The notes below the pieces were generated by a model. It had not been told where the DNA came from. It was given only the letters and a program-made list of their open reading frames with translations, and did not search any database. A DNA stretch of 64,000 bases. Source: Macrostomum lignano (lineage: Eukaryota). Below are positions 197-16,340 of this stretch, in pieces. The translations under genes and the position numbers were made by a program. Location: assembly GCA_002269645.1 (NCBI GenBank), contig NIVC01000024.1, positions 1 through 64,000 of the forward strand, read 5' to 3'. The stretch's first letter is position 1, and every line of letters begins with the position of its first letter.

Positions 197-871
197 ATGG
201 GTAATCGAACAACATGTTCGCGTGCAAAGCACGATAATAATAATTTAATAAAAAAACAATCAGAAAAAGTTAAAAAAGCTGAAGATAATTACGAACTAGA
301 ACTAGCAAAATTAAGGCAGTTACAAGCTGATAAAATAAGAAAGGAATTGTTAAAACCCACACCTACGAAACTAACTAAAACCAAGAGTTTTCAGGAACAT
401 AAAATGACCATGACGTGGGATGATTTTAAACAAAGATATGGAACGGACACAACAAGCAATATCGAATTAACAAATTGGGCGAGGCAGTTAAAAATAAAAC
501 CATTCAGATGTGTTATGCGAGATGAGATCAAAGACTTACCACAATATGGATGTTTCATTGTTAATATTGAAACAACAAAAGAAAATGGTGTTCATTGGTC
601 AGCAGTTTATTCAAAACCAAAACTTGTTTATTTTTTTGATTCATACGCGCTTCCTCCGTTACAGGAAATAAAAGATAAATTTAATCATACTAAAAATCGT
701 TTATGTGGAGATCATCACGAACAATTTCAAACCTTTGATAAAAGTTATTGCGGGCAAGCGGCGTTGTATTTTTTATATAAAATTAATAACTCGAAGGATA
801 CCCCCGAAGTATTTAAGACTATCATGCAAAGCATGCGACCCTACGGGGCGATTTTAGACTCTATAAAATAG
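197..871 (+). CDS. Adenain/Ulp1-like cysteine maturation protease with N-terminal extension
   Basis: Intact 224-aa ORF with NIETTKENGVHW (His), YFFDSYALPP (Asp) and QFQTFDKSYCG (oxyanion Gln, catalytic Cys). Confidence 0.9.
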   Translation: MGNRTTCSRAKHDNNNLIKKQSEKVKKAEDNYELELAKLRQLQADKIRKELLKPTPTKLTKTKSFQEHKMTMTWDDFKQRYGTDTTSNIELTNWARQLKIKPFRCVMRDEIKDLPQYGCFIVNIETTKENGVHWSAVYSKPKLVYFFDSYALPPLQEIKDKFNHTKNRLCGDHHEQFQTFDKSYCGQAALYFLYKINNSKDTPEVFKTIMQSMRPYGAILDSIK

Positions 872-881
872 ACAGTAAAAA

Positions 882-2866
882 ATGTTATTTTCTGGAACAC
901 CCTCATGGAACGGAACAACAAGTAGTGGTGGTGGTGGCACATCTGGTGGAATAAGTGTTACATTTGGAGATAATCGATATATTAATGAGGATGAAGGTTA
1001 TAAAAAAACTGAATTGATAATAAATTAAATTTAAAAAGAAATGTTGCAGATTCCTATACCAAAACTCAAATAGATGATTCACTAAATCTGAAACGGAACG
1101 TAGCCGATTCCTATACCAAAACCGAAGTTGATAATTCATTAAATTTAAAACGCAATACAGCCGATTCTTATACCAAAACCGAAGTTGATAATTCATTAAA
1201 TTTGAAACGGAACGTAGCCGATTCTTATACCAAAACCGAAGTTGATAATGGATTAAATTTAAAAAGAGATGTAACTGATTCTTATTCTCGAACTGATTCT
1301 GATTCACGTTATGTTCAAACCACCGCAACCGGAAACCTAGATATGAGCAACAACCGAATTATAAATGTTTCAATTACAACTAGTGATTCAGTGGTTGATA
1401 AGAACTATGTCGATAATCAAGTTGCCACTCGTAGTGGTAATATTAATATGAATAATTTTAAATTAACAAATTTATTATTTGGAACAGAGAACGCAGACTC
1501 GATAACTCTAGGCCAAGTAAACGAGCGAGCTAATGCAACCGACGCCGATATTTTTACCACGCCGCTTACATCAAATACTTCAAATCCTGATGTTGTTCTT
1601 ACAGCATCTGAAAATGGCAACACAGCTTTTCGAGTTGGAGATGGAAGCCTTGCGACACAATGGTCACCAAATACCGGAACCACAACCAATATGGAAATTC
1701 AATTTGAATTTTTAGGTTATAATAGAAGAATATTTGAATTAAGAATTACAGGCAGTGAAACAATTGAGATACCCTCGGGTGGTCGGTTCGCGCAAAAAAT
1801 GTTGCTACCGATTCATGGACGACATTAACTACGTCGGGATCACCAGTTCAAGCAACATCATTTGCTCTATCTAATTTAACGACTAATTTTTGGAAATATT
1901 ATAGCGTATTCTTCCCAACTGGTGGTACCGGTACACAACCTATCGAGGTTCGTCAAATACAATTATTTGAACACCGTGTTGAAATTCAAGATCTTAATTG
2001 GCCAACTCAAATACTTTCTGCAGTTCCGCGAGCGTACGTAGATCAGCTAGCTACTCCAACATCAAATGGTAGAATGTCTGGAAGCGATAAAAATAAATTG
2101 GATGGAATACCTGCTATTGATGCGGCCTTGTTCGAACCAGTAATTTGCAATTGGTCTGGATATCAAAATCCAACAACCGCCGGAGATATATATCCAGTCG
2201 GTTCTTTAATTGCGATGCTTCTTATATCGATTATCAAAACGGGCTAGAATTACTCGTGAAACTTCTGGAGTAAGTGGTGCTTTACAATTCAATTTCACAC
2301 ATTTTCAAAATATATCTGCGTCTTTCTTTTTCCGAGTTGCTAATTCTACAGGAGATGGTGCAGATGCGGTTTGGTTTTATGCATATTGTCACGAACGTCC
2401 AACATCGGAATTTGGACTGGATTATCAACCGACGCCGGGCTGATAGTGTTTGCTAGTGAGTGGACTGATAGGTTTGGAGTTGTTTGGAGTAATAAAAAAT
2501 CAGACGGATCTACGGTTCGTAACGATGTTAGTAGTGATGCGGATCAAACTGTAGCCTATGCTAATATTGATAACGGATTGGCATTTATTTGAAGTTAATA
2601 TTTTAAATCAAAGGGTTTGGTACCGATTACAGTCATACAATGTTGCTGGTGATTCTTTTACCCTCATTGGACAGAACGTTTTCACATATGATAGTGGAAC
2701 TTGGGGAACTTTAGATAAATCTGGAACCCTTATGGGTTTTGGTGCTCGAACTGGTGGATCGGATGCTGCACATTTTATTCGTGGTGCAGTTGTATGTGGT
2801 AGTACGTCGTTTGGTTATGTTTTTCCCTCTACTGCTTATTTGGAAAAACCTCCTACTCAAATATAA
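882..2866 (+). pseudogene. Fibre/receptor-binding protein: repeat shaft, discoidin (F5/8C)-like domain, neck, L-type lectin-like head; several 1-nt frameshifts
   Basis: ATG at 882. Stitched product has LNLKRNVADSYTKTEVDNS repeats, GNLDMSNNRIINV...DKNYVD, AFRVGDGSLATQW...IEVRQIQLF, ATPTSNGRMSGSDKNKLDGI, and GDGADAVWF...GFGARTGGSDAAHFI. Confidence 0.75.
1024..1290 (+). repeat. 57-bp (19-aa) coding tandem repeat, about 5 units, fibre shaft
   Basis: TATACCAAA recurs at 1055, 1112, 1169 and 1226. Variation is largely at third codon positions. Confidence 0.9.
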
Positions 2867-2897: not shown

Positions 2898-3224
2898 ATG
2901 GCTTTTAGTAGAACTCCATCGATGCGGCAAAATAATGTTATTATTCCTATTCCTAAACAAGAATCAAATATAAAAACATTCAAATCTCATACCAAATTTT
3001 TATTTAGTACTGTAAATGTTCAGGATAATAAGAAGCTTCAAGAATTAATTAAGTTATTAAAAAATCATATTATACTTCAAGAGTTTTGGAAAATAGGATT
3101 TAAATGGGAGAAAAAAGAAAGAATAACTCCAATACAATACCTATTGAGCTCGGGACAAATCCCCAAAGAGCGCGGGGAATTCATTTTGGTGCTATTAAAA
3201 ATAGACGAGAATGTCGGTATCTGA
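2898..3224 (+). CDS. Hypothetical viral protein (108 aa)
   Basis: ATG at 2898 preceded by TATAAA. The ORF packs against its neighbours and overlaps the next start. No motif recognised. Confidence 0.5.
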   Translation: MAFSRTPSMRQNNVIIPIPKQESNIKTFKSHTKFLFSTVNVQDNKKLQELIKLLKNHIILQEFWKIGFKWEKKERITPIQYLLSSGQIPKERGEFILVLLKIDENVGI

Positions 3225-3866
3225 AGCAGATAAATGGGAACGCGACCGGTTCAACCAACGTAAAGGTCAGATGTTAAGTAATGTTGATCGTATTAACTAT
3301 GATTATGATTTATATGCTAAAAAAGTAAGAAGAGTTTCAAACCATATAAGAAATATGGACTTTTTCAATATTGGATTTGGAAGCTTATCAATGTTATGTG
3401 TAATCGTTTTAGGTATTTTACAATCTATTCCAACTCTTAATTTATCTCAATTATTTTTAGGTATTTCAATTGGCTCAATATCAGGTTTTGAATTGATCAG
3501 GAACTTATCAATACTTTTAGCAATTAAATTATATCTTAAAAAAAGAAAGGAAAAATATAAATCATTAAGAGATGTTGCAAGCAATATAAAAATCAATTAT
3601 ATTTATATGTGCAAAAAATATTGGATGACGGAGAGATAACGATTCATGAATTATCAACCGCGGTTGAATTATATGAAAAATATTTAAAAGATAGAAATAG
3701 AATTTTAGATGTTGAAACTTTTACCGATATGGAATTAAAAGAGTTGAGACTCGATAAACCCAAAGCTCCACCGATAGAAACATTAGGTATTTACGAACCT
3801 GAAACTATTGCTACTGGGGCACAAAGCCCGCGGTCAGGAAGTGCTGTAGAACTTAATGTTGTTTAG
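3211..3866 (+). pseudogene. Polinton-type two-TM membrane protein (about 218 aa), frameshift near 3610
   Basis: Two hydrophobic segments, then KKRKEKYKSL...(shift in A-run)...KILDDGEITIHEL, a motif I recall from conserved Polinton/adintovirus hypothetical proteins. Confidence 0.6.
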
Positions 3867-4346
3867 TTTATTTAATGCATATGTTATATATTCTTCCCAA
3901 AGTGGTAACTCTCTTCTGATCCTAGGTTTAAATTTTTTATCAATACATAAAAATTCCAATGACTTTTTCAATAACATTTCGTTAGGTATGTTACCTATCC
4001 TTATAAACTTTGTATTCTCTCGAATAAGAAAATTGAAATAATATCCAACTAAAATTAAAATCCTTTCGGAGTCTTTCGAACTTAATCCCTTTCCTTTATT
4101 TAAATGGAAAAAGTTATTATATAAATAAACATTATTTCCGGGAATTAAAATTGGATCAGAAATGTCTCTTGTAAGATTTCTTAAAATTGTGTTTTTAAAA
4201 TAGTAATATGAGTTTTCAATCTTTTTTGTTTTTTCAAATTGATATATTTTAGAACATGAATAACACATATGATATATATCTCCGTTTGCTGTTTGCCCTC
4301 TGTGCATAGTCACATTACATTTATTACAAACATAAATGTCTTTCAT
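3834..4346 (-). CDS. Hypothetical viral protein with N-terminal Zn ribbon
   Basis: CNKC-x18-CYSC at the N-terminus; 170-aa ORF with AAAAAATG start context. Confidence 0.55.
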   Translation of the reverse strand: MKDIYVCNKCNVTMHRGQTANGDIYHMCYSCSKIYQFEKTKKIENSYYYFKNTILRNLTRDISDPILIPGNNVYLYNNFFHLNKGKGLSSKDSERILILVGYYFNFLIRENTKFIRIGNIPNEMLLKKSLEFLCIDKKFKPRIRRELPLWEEYITYALNKLNNIKFYSTS

Positions 4347-4372
4347 TTTTTTGTTATTTTTTTAGATTAAAA

Positions 4373-5278: not shown

Positions 5279-8200
5279 TATATTTGCTTATTATATCTTC
5301 TTTTTGTTTTTTATCTTTTATCATATTTTTTATCTCTTCTTTTAAACCATATGGATATGTTTTAATTTTATCATCTAAATACTTTTATCATCAAATGGAC
5401 TTAATGTTTTTTTATCTGTCTCGATGACAAACATCTGATGCTTATCTGAATTTAATCGATATTGTGGAGCATGATAATTTTCAATTGTATTAAGGTAATC
5501 TAAAAGTACGTTTTTATAATCATCAAATGTTATCTTTTTTACTGCTGCTCTTGATACCCCTTTTATTTTTTTTACCTCTCTCTCCTGTCCTAAAACCTTA
5601 AATGCATAGCATTTTGATCTTATTGCTATAAACTCGGTTATGATTTTGCTATTTAATTCATCTTTCATTTTAAGTACAACTTTTTTATTTTGATCTGATT
5701 TTAAAGGATGGTTATCCGGATAGTCTGATGTGTCCAATGTATCCTTAATTTTTTCCATATCTTTATAGACTTCTGGTGTTTCAACCTTAAATACCAAACT
5801 GTCGGTGTCTGCATATATTGGATAGTTATCTGGCCATGTTTTATTTATAACATCATAATAGTATTCATACATTACTAGCTTTGCAAAAATCTAAAACAAC
5901 CATTCCAATAAATATTGGTTTAAGAAATTTTGTTGTTTTATTTCTCATATGAATACCCATAAAGTTATCATCAAATTTTATAAAGTCTTTAAAGTTAGGT
6001 TTTGAGAAATATTTCTTTGCTTTATCAATATCCTTTTCTAAATGGAATTGGGTTCTATCTCTAATATTTTCAACCGTTTTTCCATAAAAAGCATTATTCA
6101 TTAATTTCCAATAATCTTTCTCAAAATTTGTTTTTGACATCTGTCTCTGATTTGAATTAAAATCAATATATTTAGCTAACCAATCTTCCTCAATAAACGA
6201 TATTGTTCGATGTACTTTTGTAACTTTTAATCCCTGTTTTTCATAAAATTGTAGAAGCTTATAATGCACTACATAGTTTTTCTTATCATGTAAATTTAAT
6301 ATTAATTTTTTTGTTGCTAGATGTTTTGCATTATCTGCTTTAAGATAATCTTTTTGTGTTTGTGATAAATCATCTTCATTAACTGAACAATGCTCTGGAG
6401 CTAAAGGATATTTATATGTTTTTGCTTTTGCTTCCCGAGTATATTGCAAATCCACTTCTACGATACAGCCCCTTCCTTCGGGAATATTTTTGTAATAATC
6501 GGGGTCATCTTCCCATTGGAAATCAGCTATTGGTAATTTTTGTTTCATACAACCACCGTATAAATTGTTTGCATCTAGATATAATACATATGATGATTTT
6601 TCTTTTTTATTATAATTTGGAAGATACTTATTATTTACTTTAGTATATCTATCTCCTAGTACACCCGAGAATCCGCCGCGAATTCCTCTCTCAATCATTA
6701 ACAACATATCATGATCAGTTAGTAAATCAATCTTAACATCTGTATGTTTCAAACCACAAGCCCATGTTAATCCCGGTGCACTGAAACAATATGCGGGATC
6801 AATTTTAAAATTCTCATATGTATAATTCCTAAAGTTTTCAAATGCATCAGCTAATAGGAGAACATCTGCTTTAAGATATAGATTATGATAATCTTTAAAT
6901 GTTTTACAATTAAAGTATTTCCATACTTTTTGAGCGTGTTCATAATCCGATTCACTTATGTTTGTTTGTGATAATGTTGAATAAAACTTTTCAATTGGGG
7001 GTAATTCGGTATGAGAAAATACCTCTTTAGATGTTACATATTCATATGGGTAGATGCCCTTACGAGTTAATAGCATTAGTTCTTCCTCGGATAGTTTTTC
7101 TTTTTTGAAACGATTCAATAAGATTGGAAAGTTTTTCTTTACTATTTCTAAATCCCATGGTTTTGGAACTAATGATGAAACAACATTTGCTAAAGATGTT
7201 GATAAGAATCTCAAGGAATCTAGAAAAACTAGATGGGAGTATTTCTTACCATATGTTATTGATATGTAATTTTCTGATGTTTTAGGTAATATATTTATTT
7301 CATATTCATCCTTTCCTAAATGAAGCAATTCTCGAACTAAGAAATGAAAATCATATCCGGAACCATTATGAAAAAATACTGGTATTTCCTTACATCCTTT
7401 TCCTTCTTTTGCATTACATGATCTACATGCTGCCCCTCGATAATTTCCTGTTAGATGACAATGTTCTCGTATCTTATTATTCTTACTTAAATGTCTTTTG
7501 CACATAAAACAATTTGTTGCATTTTTATAATTGTCTCTATCCTTATTTGTCATATTAATATTTTTTGATAATTTATCATATTGATTTTGAATATATTCAA
7601 ATACATTTACTAATGATTCTGCCATGTGCTTAGCTGCATCATTACCGTGGTAAGTAATCATCCTTGATTTAAATATATGATCAGCTACAGAGTGTACATA
7701 TATACAATAACTATTCGGAAACTGTTGTGCCAATTTTTTTGTGCATTCACCGTCATCAGATACCGTCTGTGATTCTTTTAAGGGAACATTTGTTGCTTCA
7801 AAATCAGCATATATTACTATTGGTTTTTTAACTGCCATATAATGTTGTTGGAACATTAGGGTTGCATCTTCATAATCTGGCATTTTAGCAATAGTAAATT
7901 TGTGATCTAAACAAAATCGTTGATGATTTTTAAGAGCTGTTTCATCCTTTTTAAATGTGAAACAATTTCTACATAGTGGATATCTATTTCTATTTTCTCT
8001 TAAAAAGGAACTAATGTCCTTTATGTATATATAATGTGTTTCATTTTCGCGCTGCATGTACAAAAGATCGATTTGATCTGGTGCAGTTATATCAGTTGCT
8101 GGTTTTACTAAATAACAGTTTTTCTTATACCATTCTGGATCGACCTGCTGAATTTCTTCTAGATCTTCTGGTTCTTCAATTGTAAAAACATTAATATTTA

Positions 8201-9002
8201 AACCATTCATTTTTTCAATCTTATATATATCATCTATTGCTACTGGGTATGAGATGTTTTTCATTATTATTTCATCCTCATATTGTCTATAATTATATAT
8301 TTTATTAACATGTGATTTTACTTGTTTATGATATTTATGAATTAATAAACACCATAATAAACATTTATTATCTCTATTGTCTGGATTTATAATCATTGGT
8401 GATTTAAAGTATAGCTTCATATGTGATCGTCCTTTAAGAATTTCTATAGGTGCAATCTTTACTATTGCTGAATTACAGGATACAAATATAAACCCAGATC
8501 CGTTTTCTGTCATCTTATCTATCCATTCATCAAACTCAGCTTCTATTTGATCGAATTGATTGTTGTAATTTCCCATTGATAATAATGTTTTATATGATTC
8601 TTGTGAAAAGTTATTTATTACTTCAATTTCTGAATTTGCATTAAGAATATTTGGTTTTTTAAATTCTGTTTCAACTTCTATTTTATACTTAATTGGCTGT
8701 CGTTTGTTATTTGGCCTTATAGTATAATTGTTTAATATGGTCTTTAATTTATCTTTCATTTGTTTAAAATATTCTTTATAATTTGTATTTATATCTATAT
8801 CTATATATATTACTTCAGCTCCATTTTGTCCTTGTGGTTGGGGGTTATTAATATCATTTAATTGTCTTTCTAAACGTATCTCATTTTCTGCCCTAATTCT
8901 TGCTTCTATTTCAGCCCTATCGGCAATTCGTTGTGCATCGATTTGAGCTATTAATTGCGCTCTAAGTTCAGGGTTGTCGATTTGAGCTAAAATTGCTTCC
9001 AT
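5253..9002 (-). pseudogene. polB: Protein-primed family B DNA polymerase (pPolB), two 1-nt frameshifts (about 5885 and 5380)
   Basis: ExoI IYADFE, ExoII FHNGSGYD, ExoIII YLKADV; polymerase motifs YLDANNLYG, KLMNNAFYGK, YADTDS; C-terminal LSPFDDK(R)YLDDKIKTYPYG. Endonuclease VII-like Zn insert CFMC...REHCHLTGNYRGAACRSCN. Confidence 0.95.
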
Positions 9003-9085
9003 TTTATAGAATAAAATTTATATAATGTTTGAATTATTGATTTTTTAATTTTGTGTTTTTGGTGTCCAGACCCTCCCCCAGGAGC

Positions 9086-10072
9086 CTATTCGAGATCTGC
9101 TTTTGGTAATAGCAATCCATTGCCCATAACGTTTGAATTTAAGAAAATTCCTGAACCTGCTTTTGGTCTCATTTCGAGATATAATCCGCTTCCGTCGTGT
9201 TTTTCAATGATATTAAAATCTTTTCCTAATTTATTAAAAATTTTCTGAACAGCTGGTCTAAAATTGGATCCAATATTGTCAAAAAATCCTTTAGCTTTCT
9301 CACCCGTTTTTTCTAAAGTTTGACCAAATTCATGTAGTTTATCTGCGACAACTCCACTTCCTTGGGTTGTTCCTTTTAGTACCAAACCATTCCCGTGATT
9401 TGTTCCTTGCAAGAGTAAACCTTTTCCGGCTGCTAACCTAGCTTCTGCATTTCTTTTTTGCTCTGCTGTTGCTGAACTACTATTAATGGTATCAATAAGT
9501 TTCTGTTTGAATTGTGCGTCCTGCGTTATTTGCTGTCTTTGAAATTCGGCCTCTCTTTTAGCTTTTTCGTCCGCAGCTTTTTTGTCATTTACTGCTTTTG
9601 CAATTCCAGCTGCTCCGCCAGCAACTCCTCCAGCTGCTCCAATTCCTGCAAAAATTATTGGGAGCAAAGCTGCAAGGGGCAAGATTCCCCCCTGTTTCGC
9701 TCTTAACTCTCCTAGCTGTTTTACATTATCATGAATTCTTTTTCCGGCTAAACCGACTGCTCCAGCTGCACCAAGTCCTAAAAGAAGCGGTAGAATGGGT
9801 AGTAATCCGCCGTCCTTTTTAGTGTGAGTCTCCATTAAAAATTTCACATCGGAGTCTGTCAACCTATAATTTCTGCCGCGATTCTTAAAGGATATTGGCC
9901 TTCCTTCTTGTGCATATTTTGCTGCGAGTTTAAATGTATCGATGTCGTAGTCAAACTTTTTACCTAATCGATCCAATCTTTTTAACATTGTGTGGCTATG
10001 TTTATTATCATCTAGATCTAAAGTATCTACAATTTCTCCTATAAAATATAAGCGGTCGTTATCTGTGTCCAT
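9086..10072 (-). CDS. Putative virion core / membrane-active precursor protein (adintovirus-type)
   Basis: Intact 328 aa. GG followed by hydrophobic helices (GG-LLPILPLLLGLGAAG; GG-ILPLAALLPIIFAGIGAAGGVAGGAAGIAKAVN) and six GxG-hydrophobic motifs. Confidence 0.75.
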   Translation of the reverse strand: MDTDNDRLYFIGEIVDTLDLDDNKHSHTMLKRLDRLGKKFDYDIDTFKLAAKYAQEGRPISFKNRGRNYRLTDSDVKFLMETHTKKDGGLLPILPLLLGLGAAGAVGLAGKRIHDNVKQLGELRAKQGGILPLAALLPIIFAGIGAAGGVAGGAAGIAKAVNDKKAADEKAKREAEFQRQQITQDAQFKQKLIDTINSSSATAEQKRNAEARLAAGKGLLLQGTNHGNGLVLKGTTQGSGVVADKLHEFGQTLEKTGEKAKGFFDNIGSNFRPAVQKIFNKLGKDFNIIEKHDGSGLYLEMRPKAGSGIFLNSNVMGNGLLLPKADLE

Positions 10073-10520: not shown

Positions 10521-10618
10521 CATTCCATTTAGACCAGATTTTAGACCAAATTTTTGAAAACGAAAACCAAAACGATAGTCTAGTTTTGTTTGGTCTAAAA
10601 TCTGGTCTAAATGGAATG
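10521..10618. repeat. Perfect 30-bp inverted repeat with 38-nt spacer
   Basis: CATTCCATTTAGACCAGATTTTAGACCAAA (10521-10550) is the exact reverse complement of 10589-10618. Confidence 0.95.
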
Positions 10619-10700: not shown

Positions 10701-10971
10701 AGTAGTAGTATAGAAAAAGACGCTTCTAGATCAGACCTTATTTTAATGGCCGTTTGTAAGGTCTTAAGAGGGGGGACGCGAGGGGGGTGTTAGGGAGTGT
10801 TTGGAAGTGTTGGGAAGTGATTTTTATTGTTAGGGGTGATTATGGGTGATTAGATGTGTTAAGGGTGTTTAGATGTGTTTTTTTATTTACCCCCCGTGTC
10901 CCCCCTCTAGACCCTTAAAACGGTCATTAAAAAAGTGCTCTGGGTCTAGAAGCGTCTTTTTATATACTACT
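10701..10971. repeat. Polinton terminus plus a diverged internal inverted copy (about 100-bp arms)
   Basis: 10701 AGTAGTAGTATAGAAAAAGACGCTTCTAGA... aligns with the minus-strand read from 10971, AGTAGTATATAAAAAGACGCTTCTAGA... Homology extends through TTTTAATGRCCGTTT and GAGGGGGGAC. Confidence 0.85.
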
Positions 10972-12140
10972 GTGGATGAAGGCTTGAAGGGGGTCCCTGA
11001 GGACTGCGGGTGATGGTCCAGCCACAGTGGCAATAAAATCGGCCGCATAGCCGACCTTCTGAACTGGGTCCGAATGCGGGCTGCAAAGCAGCTCGTCCAT
11101 GACTAAATTCCAGAGGATCGGGCTGAGGACTCCACCTTGCGGTCCGCCTTTCTGGACTTACACGGGGCGGGAGTGTCCCAGGAAGTGCGAAGTGGCAGTA
11201 CGATGGGAGACCATGTACATGATCCAGCAGGTAAGGTGCTCGAGCGTGCCCCGGGATTCCAGGGCCCGCTTAAAGGCTTCAAAAAGCACATTATTGAAAG
11301 CACCATCAATGTCGAGGAAAAGGGACAGCGCGTATTCACTGCCAAGCACAGCGCTCTTGCTTGTCGACAATGGCGTGCAGCGCACTTTCGATGGAGCGTC
11401 CAGGACGAAAGGCGTGTTGATTGGGGGAGAGCGGGGAGTTCCTCAGCTCTACGAGGAGGAGGCGCCAGAGCACCAGCCGTTCCATCAGTTTGAGGAAGAA
11501 ATACGTCAGACTGATAGGGCGGTAAGCTTTGGCAGAATGATAGTCTCCCTTCCCTGGCTTAGTTATGAAGACTACCGTAGCCTCTTGCCAGGCTTTTGGC
11601 ACGTACCCGAGGGTAATGCTGGCCTTGAAGAGATTGCAGAGGAGGCCGAAAAACCTGTCATTTTTAACTGCCTCATAAAGGAAAGCAGGATAAATGTTGT
11701 CAGGTCCTGGTGACTTGAAAGGAAAGAAGGATTTTGCGGCGCGAGCCGTCCTTTCTTTAGTAATGATGGTCGAAGCCAGGATCTGTCCGCCCGGAGAGTG
11801 GTCCGGTGGGCCTAGCTGCTGCGCGGCACGTGGGAAAGAGCTGGTGAGCATGATGTCCAGCGATTCCCCAGGGTTCTCAGCGAGCCGGCCGTCCGGTCTT
11901 TTAATGACTGAGAGCTTTGACATTTTGTCGAGGGTGAGAGCCTTAACCACGCGTGAAGTAGGGCGGGTGCCTTCTAACTCCGCGCAGTATTGGCGCCATT
12001 TGTCGGACTTGGCTTTCCTGGTTTCACGCTTAAAGTCGCGGATCGCTTCTTGGTAGGCGGCCAGGTCAGCTGGGTCCTTGCTCTTGCGAGCTTTCCGCTG
12101 GAGGCACTTTGCCTTGCGCCGGAGGGATCCAAGAGCCAGG
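10972..12140 (-). pseudogene. Reverse transcriptase part of ORF2 (frameshift, stop, YAAD)
   Basis: Motifs as above, spread over ORFs 11336-12313 and 11158-11385, with an in-frame TAA near 11158. The frame runs ...LQAFIH directly into the Polinton terminus. Confidence 0.9.
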
Positions 12141-13279
12141 TTGTTGTTGAGCTGCGCCCGTCCAGTGCTTGTGCACTTTGCCCTTGTTTTTCTTGTTGTT
12201 ATTTTTGCATGCCACCCCGCCCCGTCCCCCGTCTCGCGCCCGGGGCCAGGGTTTGTGAGAGGCGTAAGCCTCAACCCTGGCCTAGCCTTTTCTGCACCCA
12301 GCCCCCTGTCCAATTCCTGTCCAATCTGGGTGTTGCCCTACCCCTCCCTCTTTGCCCCGTCTCACCCTGGGGCTACTCGCATTGGCTGGCTGGCTGATAA
12401 GCCGGCTGGGCCCCAGGGTTTGGCTCGCCCTCTCCTATCTGCCCCACCCCTTCCCCTAAAGGGGGGTGTAATATTGTACACCCCCCTTTTGTGTACAATA
12501 TTATTTAAGGGCCCGCCCTGAGCGTGCTGCGCCCCACGTGTTCGTATTACTTTCCGTTTCTTCGGTGTCATTCTGAGAACCTGCTCTCTGCAATCTGATA
12601 ATTCGTTTGCAAACCCCGTAATCGCTGGTTATCTGCTTCGCGCCGCATACCGAGTCTCGCCAATAAACGCTTCGCCAATCAAACCTATCTAAATATACTA
12701 AATCTCTAAGGTTTGTATGTTTGTCCATAAGTCTCTAAACGCAGAGGTTGTTGTGTTGAGAAAGTCAGACTGAATTTAGGGGTACACACGAACTTAGCCC
12801 AAGTTGGCCTATCGACTGGTATATTTATACTTATATATTCATTTAGCTGCGACAGATCAATATCGGAAAACAGATGTACATAGCATATGTACATATCTGC
12901 AAACCAACTACACAACAGAGGTGAGCGCGTGTTTTCGTCTTTCGGGTTGCTGCGTGGGGCCGGGAGCTGGTATGGACCTGGGACCGGTGAACACTCGCTG
13001 ATCTCAGGGTGGTCGGTCCGGCGAACTCTCGCCAAGCCGAGCCTTAGGGTGCGTAGGAGTAGCCGGGGTAGAGGGCTGGGACCGGGGTGTCTCAGGCGGG
13101 AGGACCCGAACCCTGACCCGTCCAGCGGCCATTAGGTCGAGACACAATACCTTTCTTGGTCCAGGGCTCCTGGAGTAGGATGATGCCCGGTTTCACGAAG
13201 TTTGCCACCTGCATCAGGTTGGTCGAAGCCGCGATGCAGTGGTGTAGGTTTAGCTGCAGGATGTCCACTCCGGGGAATC

Positions 13280-14758
13280 CACGAGTGGTCCGCGCAGCTT
13301 TCTGCCGGCTCAAGGCGAGTTGTGCAGGAGAGCCGCCTCTTCTGCCTCGCCGATAGCTCCAGGCTCCAGTTCCATGGGCTCCTCCCGGATGGACTCCATG
13401 GTCGAGGGCGGGGCCGCCACCGGTTTCGGCCCGGTTTTCCGGGTGCCGCAGTGGTGACACTAGGCTGAGGGTTGCTGCGGTTGTTTGCCTTAGCGGTGTC
13501 CAGCAGCTGCTTCGCGCTGAGTCAGACCAGAGCAGATAGTGTTCCGGGCGGGTTTCCAGCCCTTTCCACGTCCGCCTGTTGCTGCAGCTTTCGCGGCTTC
13601 CCCCTGACAGGGTCCACGTCCTCGGAGGGGTCGTGACGAACGGGAGCTTCTTTTCCTGGGCGTTTCCGCCCGGAAGAGCCCTGCTCGCCCGCTTACGCTT
13701 CTCCGGGGGCGGTGGACGGGTGGCGTCAGACTCAAAGCTAAAGAGCTGAATCTGCATCAGCCTGGCAGAGATGATGGACATGTCCGGATAGCGGAGCATC
13801 CAGCTATCCGACAGTCCAAGAATAGCCGTGAAACCGTCTTTGCCCGGCTTGGAGATGGTCTCGTGAACTACGACGCCATTGGCTGGTAGCTCCGGGTTAG
13901 TAGCCACTAGCAGGCGACGCAACTCGTCGGCCTTGGTGATGGAGCTGCGAGACGGAATCCAGGCACGGTGCCGGTGTGTCCGGGGTCGCTCGTCCTCCCT
14001 GTAGATAAACAGGTTTTCCAGCTCCGTACCCCAGTCGAAGGTTTTCAGCATCTCGAGGAGCTGCTGCCCAGACTGGCTGTCGGCGGGCTGGATATGGAGG
14101 GCTTGGTCCTCGACTTTTGTCTTTTGGACGGGAATAGCGGTACCGCTCAGGGCTATCTTGACCAGGTGGGAGTCCAACCTGCGCCAGATAAGGTCGAGCT
14201 GTTTGGCCGTAAGAGTCGTCTCCTGGCCTTGAATGATCAGGGCCGGCTGCCTCTTGGTCATAGCCGCATAGGTGCGTTTCGGCTTGGTGGTTTGGCCAGC
14301 ACCCCGCTTTGGATCCCTTCACAGCCGTGGGAGCTTCCACACGGACAGAGGTCCCGCCACGGGAGGGGTCAGCCGCACCAGGAGCTTCAGCGGCACCTGA
14401 CGCTTCTGACCGGCGCGCGGGGTCCGCCCCCTTGTCGGATGTCGGCTCCTCCGCGGGATTCGCAGAGTTACCGGCACCCTCCTCGGAGGTGGCCGGAGGG
14501 GCGGCTTTCGCATTCCTCCGTTCCTCCGCTTTGCGCTTGAGAAAAGCTTTGTAGCGAGCAATGCTACGGGCCTTCTTCTTAGAGGGCTGAGGTCCGCTGT
14601 CCTGTTGTCCAGCCACTTCGGTTGTCCTGAGCGGCGGCAGGGGCTGACTGGGAGGCACCGGGGGTTCCGGTGTTGCGAATATCCGGCTGGGCCGCGGTAC
14701 CAACCTCGGTTGGTGCTCCAGCAGCCTCGGACGTGGCGGAGGTAAAAGAATACTCCAT
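13280..14758 (-). pseudogene. ORF1 (gag-like) of the LOA-like element, frameshifted; 3' boundary approximate
   Basis: ATG at 14758. Low-complexity basic N-terminus, then QPALIIQGQETTLTAKQLDLIW...; lies directly upstream of the APE start. Confidence 0.65.
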
Positions 14759-16340
14759 GAGTCGCTGAAAGGCGAATGGGAACTAGAGGTGAGAAGCTTC
14801 TGGGCCGCAACCCCAAACCCAACAGCCAGGCCAAGAGGTAGCGACCGGGGGTGGCTTAAGCCCTTACCGGCCCGACCGCTAGCAACCGAGAAACTCCCCG
14901 GCTAAGAGCCCGGCTTGGAAAGAAACCAGAGGCCGAACCAAAGGTCCGGTACTACACTGGGCCCTTGAGGGAAGCAGGAGGACTGCCTCCGGAGCCTGCG
15001 GACTGGCCGCATACCCTGTTAAGGTCAGAGGGTGATACCTGTTCCTCAGAGCCGTGGCCAGAGGTATCTGATACGCACAGGTTCACTTCCGGGCGGAGCC
15101 CGTACCCAAGTCGGCCAGCAGGCTACGGGTGGGTTGCCGCCGCCGGAGCCCAGTCAGTCCAGCAGCCCTAGAGCTGCCTTGAACACATGCGGGGCGTGAA
15201 TCCCTGGGTCGGCTTGTGAGTCAGCTTGGAGAGAGTTCTCCTGCCATTCCTGCACCAGAATAGAGGGGGTGCAGGTGTGTAGGATCGCAGACCTTACCTC
15301 GTAAGCCTGATCTGTCTCATGCTACACAGGCGTGCTGAGCCCACCATTGCCTGCAATTCACACCTTCACGGTTTCTTTATCTTACGGCTAACGCTTGATG
15401 CCTAATTTCTAGCGCCTAATTTCAGCCTTCAAGGCTTAATCTCCCAACCTGAGTCTGCACGATTTTGTTAGTCCCTATTCTGAGTCTACGACTTCAGTAT
15501 AGTACCTAAATTCCAAGTATTTCCTATTTTGAATCTCTACGACTTCGACATTCCATATTCCAATTATTTCATATTTTTGGGCTTTTACGCCTCTGTTCGA
15601 ATCACGCTTGAAATGGTTAAGACTGTAAAATTTTCTCTCGATTTAGTAAAGGCTGTATTCTTCCAAAATTCTTTTTTACCCAAACAGGGCCTATATATAA
15701 TAATATACTAAAATCATGGTAAACCGCCATTGGCTGACGTACAGTAAAACAAAAAAGACGATTTATAACAAAAGGGATAATTTTAACAAATGCGAAGTAT
15801 CTTAACAAAATTTAGATAAATCCTATGATTGGCTAGAAGAGTAAGGCGCAAATACGACTACTTGTAGTAGTAATACATTAAGAAATATTTAGCCCCTACT
15901 GCAGTACGAATAGGCAAACGATGTTCTCCACGTTTGACACACAAATTAGTATAGCCTGAACTATGGGCCTATTCACTTTTTGTAACCCTCACTAAATTTT
16001 TATATAAAGCTCTGCTATGAATGTTAATTTATATTTCATTTATGTTATATTTACTTCCACTGTATATGTACATGTTATAAAATTATACATTCACAAGACA
16101 ATTTGTGTAGGACGACGAATTCTCTGTGGCGATCGCAGAATTAAGTTTTAGTCACAGACAACCATATGTGATGAATGTGGCTCCCTCAGCCGGCCCTCAT
16201 GAATTGTTTTGCCCCCTTGTACTATATATTCCATGCCCTGCGACAGGCGCACTCACTACTAACACTTACATGTATACCACGACTCCTGGTAAATAAGTAA
16301 ACAGACAAGCAACAGAGTTTAATGGCTAAATGCCCTGAAT

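Follow-up and report, generated by a model that had tools for sequence, protein, structure and literature searches.

Attachment fibres are best described for the Polinton-like viruses (PLVs) of protists, in which phage tail repeats are combined with Laminin G_3 (ConA superfamily), discoidin or H-lectin domains and for which, in the available part of the account, a role in host attachment has been proposed (PMC12220804). The Ltf fibre of PLV Gezel-14T was found in particles, according to the accessible text of its report (10.1101/2022.07.28.501842), and the sections available of another study note a discoidin protein in Tetraselmis elements (PMC9356565). Fibre genes have also been recorded in adintoviruses and Polintons. 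Fiber and Lectin genes are labelled in non-animal MELD viruses, and one Fiber in the extra adintovirus maps, in the accessible portion of PMC8502044 (Suppl. Fig. S2); the available text on leafhopper adintoviruses annotates T7 tail fibre genes (10.64898/2026.07.28.741253) and that on oomycete Polintons describes beta-helix fibres (10.1101/2023.08.22.554363). The main texts of PMC8097293, PMC11161782, 10.1101/2023.10.16.562556 and 10.64898/2026.06.19.733378 contain neither "fiber" nor "lectin", and the available text of 10.1101/2024.03.25.586562 mentions a fibre once, for adomaviruses. Particles of vertebrate Mavericks had not been observed, in the sections accessible of PMC8097293. How animal Polintons reach new cells and hosts is an open question, and a fibre gene in such an element hints at a way in which it might attach to cells.

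The fibre gene considered here, at positions 882–2866 of a 64-kb stretch of DNA (the window), is part of an endogenous Polinton/Maverick in an animal genome. It shares with the protist PLV fibres, as far as these are covered in the accessible text, the modular build of phage tail repeats and carbohydrate-binding-type domains, but differs from them in the animal host, in its setting within a Polinton that encodes a protein-primed DNA polymerase B (pPolB), in the presence of F5/8 type C and L-type domains in one chain and in having no S74 chaperone here. For the PLV fibres, the available descriptions mention neither an L-type (legume-like) domain nor a tandem of discoidin and ConA-like domains (PMC12220804; 10.1101/2022.07.28.501842). 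With the adintovirus and oomycete Fiber genes the locus has in common a phage-tail-fibre-like gene in a Polinton; the accessible accounts of those genes consist of labels or of beta-helix fibres, and head domains are not described there. Our literature search, which covered few subscription papers and so gives weak evidence of absence, found no animal Polinton fibre with F5/8 and L-type domains. The initial annotation had called such fibres poorly described, which is true only in part, given those of protist PLVs and the Fiber genes of animal adintoviruses. The value of the finding is limited by the similar fibres known in protist PLVs, by the putative nature of the heads as binders and by the broken state of this copy as assembled. 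Still, a fibre with two foldable head domains, for both of which intact natural relatives exist, makes a concrete and small target for the study of binding.

The element occupies positions 1 to about 10972, is AT-rich (26–39% GC) and represents the right part of a Polinton/Maverick. Its left side extends beyond the window edge, and no capsid, penton, packaging ATPase or integrase gene lies within the 64 kb. The gene order is protease-like ORF, fibre, small ORFs, polymerase on the minus strand, protein X-like ORF and ACTACT end (Table 1). The ORF upstream of the fibre, which matches no family in Pfam, PDB or NCBIfam, is a candidate adenain/Ulp1-type protease by its pattern of H, D, Q and C motifs. 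The polymerase is identified as a pPolB from its exonuclease and polymerase motifs; Pfam gives no polymerase family match for it, the endonuclease VII insert alone being matched (PF02945, 28.4 bits against a cut-off of 23.6). At 10967–10972 stands an ACTACT followed by a jump in GC, which marks the right end of the element only; (AGT)2//(ACT)2 is the Maverick end motif (PMC8097293). The host is placed among animals on the basis of the flanking DNA, in which an amiloride-sensitive channel and an M13 peptidase both score above the Pfam cut-off and receptor-like ORFs also occur. In these flanking genes, the pPolB motifs and the ACTACT end, the animal host and the Polinton context originally proposed for a "Polinton-like virus" are borne out; Polinton/Maverick is the better name.

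Table 1. Features of the fibre gene and of the surrounding element (window coordinates)
Feature	Position	Strand	Basis or remark
Probable adenain-type cysteine protease	197..871	+	directly upstream of fibre; H, D, Q, C motifs by eye
N-terminal piece: Met at 882, G/S-rich linker	882..1025	+	probable capsid-docking end
Shaft, 57-bp (19-aa) YTKTEVD..LNLKR repeat, 5.1 copies	998..1285	+	Tandem Repeats Finder, 81% matches
Two phage-fibre-type neck motifs	1337..1525	+	motifs at 1337, 1442
F5/8 type C (discoidin/CBM32-like) domain, broken near 1780	1550..1985	+	via relative P0085
Third neck-like motif and GMS segment	1990..2115	+	GMS = modelled trimer clamp
C-terminal L-type (legume-like) lectin fold and short tail	2115..2866	+	broken near 2210, 2240, 2420, 2580
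Protein-primed DNA polymerase B with endonuclease VII insert	5375..9002	-	a single frame change near 5880; motifs of exonuclease and polymerase read directly
Protein with weak adenovirus protein X match	9086..10072	-	PF05829 E 0.01, under cut-off
Right end of element, terminal ACTACT	10704..10972	.	within long imperfect palindrome

All motifs recorded in the initial annotation are present on the plus strand of 882–2866 where it had placed them. When this stretch was base-shuffled 2000 times and read in six frames, the YTK pattern appeared once, GMS never, GAD once, GFGA never and the neck pattern nine times, these patterns having been picked after the sequence had been seen. The gene lies in about seven frame pieces with six breaks, and comes to some 660 codons ending in the stop codon at 2864–2866, much as had been claimed for a single protein with six or seven frame shifts. 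The 159-aa middle piece had 157 matches among 1.84 billion representatives. Nearly all of the 150 listed aligned through the short GMS segment, and two of those listed were true relatives, P0085 (197 aa) and P0054 (332 aa), both intact. A single frame of P0085 spans 1460–2031 (E 4e-29 against the window), and P0054 spans 1942–2851 (E 2e-53 and 7e-35). In frameshift-aware alignment, P0085 is 39% identical over 188 residues with one frame change, and P0054 58% identical over 298 residues with four, with zero stop codons in either case. The two relatives overlap in the middle piece; therefore 1013–2866 is one gene, and its pieces, being continuous in the frames of P0054 and P0085, are not separate unrelated ORFs. 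Five of the frame changes are placed by alignment to intact relatives, whereas the sixth, near 1010–1025, is placed solely by the start of the repeat array at 998, inside the first piece and in a stretch that no relative spans; the first 45 codons are thus weakly joined to the rest of the gene, by the repeat array only. That N-terminal piece matches no family and has no visible signal peptide or membrane segment. A profile built from four relatives matched four of the 1771 six-frame pieces of the window, all in the fibre gene and in order. Searches from the shaft, from P0085 and from the tip found no intact full-length relative of the fibre; longer relatives numbered zero among 2671 candidates for P0085 and one among 2345 for the P0054 tip. 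Another candidate relative, P0064, proved to be a spurious repeat protein and was dropped.

The shaft is of phage type, as first suspected. Five LNLKR units are spaced at 57 nt, in agreement with the five repeats initially counted, but the repeat starts (at 1055, 1112, 1169 and 1226) comprise only three exact YTKTEVD and one YTKTQID. Its matches include the L-shaped tail fibre 8HQZ in the PDB (E 2.3e-7) and 30 phage records, the best being an SPO1-like phage tail fibre (58.6% over 70 aa); the neck region matches the tail fibre family PHROG 25848 (E 4.9e-6) over residues 139–184 of its piece. The two neck motifs of the original reading are there, and a third, neck-like motif near 1990–2045 was added by eye. 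SPO1-like gp1.4 and the T5-like L-shaped tail fibres (8HQZ) are built on the same YTK.EVD shaft repeats, but the likeness is limited to the repeat, about a quarter of the piece. Likewise, 53 proteins found in the shaft search all align through the repeat and none to the fibre heads. Six of these end in an S74 chaperone, others combine the repeat with collar, Mtd_N, collagen or GDSL domains, four are named from the protist Streblomastix strix, and none of the 53 has an F5/8 or lectin match in Pfam. In these sequences the YTK repeat is a general shaft that is combined with many heads.

The fold evidence for the two heads was obtained entirely on relatives of the window's chain; taken by themselves, the window pieces have no significant match to a lectin or discoidin in Pfam, NCBIfam or PDB. 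A discoidin/F5-8C-like domain part-way along the chain was already part of the first reading and is supported by the 39% identical relative: P0085 passes the Pfam cut-off for F5_F8_type_C (PF00754, 35.9 bits against 28.2) and that of a NedA-like galactose-binding model (32 against 27.8). The two halves of the window's F5/8 region, taken alone, do not match PF00754, and the direct match of the window piece to the AlyQ module is weak. A single-sequence fold of P0085 gave a low-confidence model (pLDDT 34.9).

Between the heads lies the GMS segment, GRMSGSDKNKLD at 2068, which corresponds to the ATxxxxGRMSxxDKxKLDGI pattern of the initial annotation. The trimer modelling that the annotation had recommended was carried out on P0054. 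Three copies of residues 38–332 scored 0.62 as a trimer, compared with 0.01 for the best of three controls, and the confident interface is confined to the GMS segments (residues 41–78), so that in the model this segment would act as the clamp. The runs share at least 50% of their contacts, and pLDDT is 67 or more. The mark used is reached by 21 of 30 solved pairs and by none of 23 single chains, a calibration done with two copies, not three. A segment like GMS is present in PDB 9J1K/9J1L, which we take to be bacteriocin side fibres, and the pass may reflect likeness to, or memory of, solved fibres such as 9J1K. In P0054, residues 38–80 hold two GMS segments compared with one in the window; the copy number of the clamp varies within the family.

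At the C-terminus, the predicted fold is that of an L-type lectin, in line with the original proposal: the model of the 58% identical relative P0054 is a two-sheet beta-sandwich. When P0054 was folded together with three relatives, pTM was 0.63 and most of the lectin-fold domain had a pLDDT of 60–90. This model aligns with ERGIC-53 at Z 21.2 (rmsd 3.3, 213 aligned), with peanut lectin at Z 19.6, with bacterial L-type adhesins at 16–18 and with GH16 folds at about 14; Foldseek ranks pea lectin first (5.2e-10). The Atlas model of P0054 agrees with an L-type fold (TM 0.65–0.72), and for the last window piece the Atlas gives a legume lectin as first match at 0.88, which is a lead only. No lectin family of Pfam matches P0054. 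Viral ConA-like domains are common in BFVD, with 377 matches at E ≤0.001 among 500 counted.

The binding site of this tip departs from the canonical one. Like all four relatives, the window retains the loop A Ala-Asp (GAD, with GDGAD at 2351) and the loop D GFG.R.GG (with GFGARTG at 2735). The canonical L-type metal site draws Glu, Asp, Asn, Asp and His from 16 residues, in the available text of PMC5008829. In P0054 and three relatives a short hairpin, of about four residues, comes after a conserved Glu, and in the P0054 model some four residues connect the strands at 189–195 and 200–206, compared with a span of 16 in the canonical site, loop C having been mapped by motif and secondary structure and not by superposition. 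The canonical loop C, with its Ca/Mn ligands and sugar-binding Asn, therefore appears to be cut short in the modelled tip, and because of this we class the tip as an L-type fold whose site is non-canonical, and not as a canonical legume lectin. It shares with L-type lectins (ERGIC-53, VIP36, legume lectins, SraP, Aap) the fold (Z 16–21), the loop A Asp and the loop D motif, but is only 13–16% identical to them and has the short loop C. Any binding of sugar by the tip would probably be non-canonical and metal-free. One or both domains probably bind carbohydrate; that both heads bind glycan is about an even bet.

The tip domain occurs in three of the 204 proteins fetched, and a scan for the tip with one genome per species turned 103 pattern matches into two confirmed loci. 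The other tip relatives found, which are new here, are three only: a Rickettsiales protein from the tail-fibre family of gene transfer agents (GTA), a surface protein of Saccharibacteria and a tail protein of phage-like type. The first is encoded on a contig (L001) of Ca. Deianiraeaceae, presumably members of the Rickettsiales, at 5316–7316 (666 aa, P0166), and begins with a DUF2793 domain. DUF2793 marks the GTA tail fibre, according to the accessible parts of PMC5026251 and PMC10883770, the former of which describes it as serving host recognition. P0166, of a length similar to that of the window protein, carries the GMS segment, the junction and the L-type domain as one contiguous block (51% identity to the window in the initial 57 aligned residues and 40% over 221). 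It differs in its N-terminal DUF2793, which has no match in the window pieces, in a different shaft, in the lack of any F5/8 domain found and in being a bacterial gene. On its contig it lies among housekeeping genes, 4.5 kb from a prohead protease (256–747), as expected of a dispersed gene transfer agent. The Saccharibacteria protein (L002, 65–6112) has at least 2015 aa and combines the same L-type domain with four CBM_4_9 modules, and the third relative, P0204, has phage tail-type flanks. Cultured phage genomes match P0054 in its first third only, and neither P0085 nor the lectin domain of L002 has a match in them.

The P0054 tip is 32.5% identical to P0166, 32.8% to L002 and 40.0% to P0204, compared with 13–14% for ERGIC-53 and VIP36; this difference places it in a bacterial or phage-type subfamily. 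One could envision that the whole fibre tip, clamp and L-type domain together, passed as a block from the tail fibre of a GTA or prophage in a Rickettsiales symbiont to an animal Polinton, where it was fused to a YTK shaft that carried an F5/8 domain. We regard this as improbable, and the lectin domain alone does not favour a Rickettsiales donor since P0054 is nearer to P0204 than to P0166. If true, it would mean that receptor-binding tips pass straight from the particles of bacteria into DNA viruses of animals, and a metal-free L-type subfamily, if real, would be a new kind of receptor-binding domain for animal viruses. The link of the tip to bacterial GTA, phage and surface proteins adds an instance of modules exchanged between particles of bacteria and virus-like elements of animals.

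We think it likely that the gene encodes the attachment fibre of the endogenous Polinton/Maverick, a homotrimer composed of shaft, necks, F5/8 domain, GMS clamp and L-type tip. This reading is favoured by the place of the gene beside the protease-like ORF of an element that has a pPolB and an ACTACT end. The chain, which has no signal peptide, would be made in the cytosol and trimerise, the GMS segment holding three chains together, and its N-terminus would dock on a capsid vertex. Three F5/8 domains would then stand part-way along the shaft and three L-type domains at the tip, and together they could provide avid binding to the surface of a host cell before entry. The parts would be drawn from a module pool that phage, GTA and bacterial surface fibres have in common, and the L-type lectins of the host itself would not be their source. 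The virion and the exchange of fibre heads inferred in the initial annotation find no support: the capsid genes lie outside the window, this copy is broken as assembled, and no swapping of heads between copies was seen, both close relatives, P0054 and P0085, fitting one and the same layout.

A fibre could also bear heads that do not read glycans, the L-type domain binding a protein receptor or serving as a structural tip and the F5/8 domain binding lipid or protein. Retention of the loop A Ala-Asp and of GFG.R.GG throughout the relatives speaks against this, as does the company of four CBM_4_9 modules in L002, and we hold it to be somewhat unlikely, even though there is precedent: in the available text of PMC5008829 a shortened loop C, like that suggested for the tip, appears to inactivate monosaccharide binding in arcelin 1; the L-type domains of SasG and Aap bound cells and none of 492 glycan probes (accessible part of PMC9999234); and discoidin domains are functionally diverse (PMC9356565, in the sections available). 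Alternatively, the fibre might be aimed at a target other than the cells of the animal, for example at the polysaccharide of symbiont or food bacteria or at the glycosylated fibrils of a helper virus, with the particle hitch-hiking. The tip relatives are indeed bacterial surface or GTA-type proteins, and the partial texts cited describe DUF2793 as a GTA tail fibre (PMC5026251) and the entry of Sputnik on giant-virus fibres (10.1101/2022.07.28.501842). No helper virus is visible within the window, however. Borrowed binding domains switch ligands easily, and we rate such a target as distinctly improbable. Least probable by far is that the gene has no part in a virion, being a set of separate ORF fragments or a captured host lectin gene. 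As this reading would have it, neither Pfam nor PDB yields a significant match to a lectin or discoidin for the window pieces taken alone, but it is largely refuted by the relatives that join the pieces in single frames and by the four-relative profile; the low identity to animal L-type lectins and the lack of visible introns or signal peptide weigh in the same direction.

If an attachment fibre is what the gene encoded, its breaks call for comment. They might be real, the lineage having given up its extracellular stage to move only in the germ line, so that the fibre decayed and the polymerase stayed under selection. There are six breaks in the 1985 nt of the fibre compared with one in about 3640 nt of polymerase (p 0.009, or 0.001–0.027 for one to five breaks elsewhere), break counts in other genes being taken from ORF lists and not from alignments. 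This concentration makes uniform decay after insertion unlikely. The base runs beside the breaks are not longer than background (3.5 compared with 3.2, the break places being approximate), and both close relatives look like fragments. On the other hand, there are no nonsense codons in the aligned segments, each break costs one or two codons, and five of the six frame steps go in the same direction, which fits long-read consensus error in a variable stretch of a multi-copy element that was poorly polished. The missing stops, the small size of the breaks and their common direction suggest assembly error, and we give real decay a little less than an even chance. The copy is broken as assembled, be it in the animal itself or through the assembly alone.

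Some further features of the locus deserve mention. The endonuclease VII (HNH-type) insert corresponds to residues 487–549 of the ORF at 5865–9017 on the minus strand; an HNH insert is treated as common only to oomycete and terrestrial nematode pPolB2 in the available text of 10.1101/2023.08.22.554363. Downstream of the fibre, the plus strand of 2898–3866 holds three overlapping ORF pieces, one of them with two hydrophobic segments, that are possibly one or two broken genes. They have no significant match in the family libraries, and we presume a SLATT-like resemblance. A 175-aa ORF at 3834–4361 on the minus strand, likewise with no significant family match, starts with a Cys/His-rich, zinc-finger-like stretch. 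The terminal palindrome at 10704–10972 contains AGTAGT and ends in ACTACT; its folding energy is -62.5 kcal/mol, with a z of -12.7 against 200 shuffles, and a second, perfect inverted repeat of 30 nt lies at 10521–10618. The end of the Polinton is adjoined, at 11063–14901 on the minus strand, by a GC-rich, broken non-LTR retrotransposon with a reverse transcriptase match.
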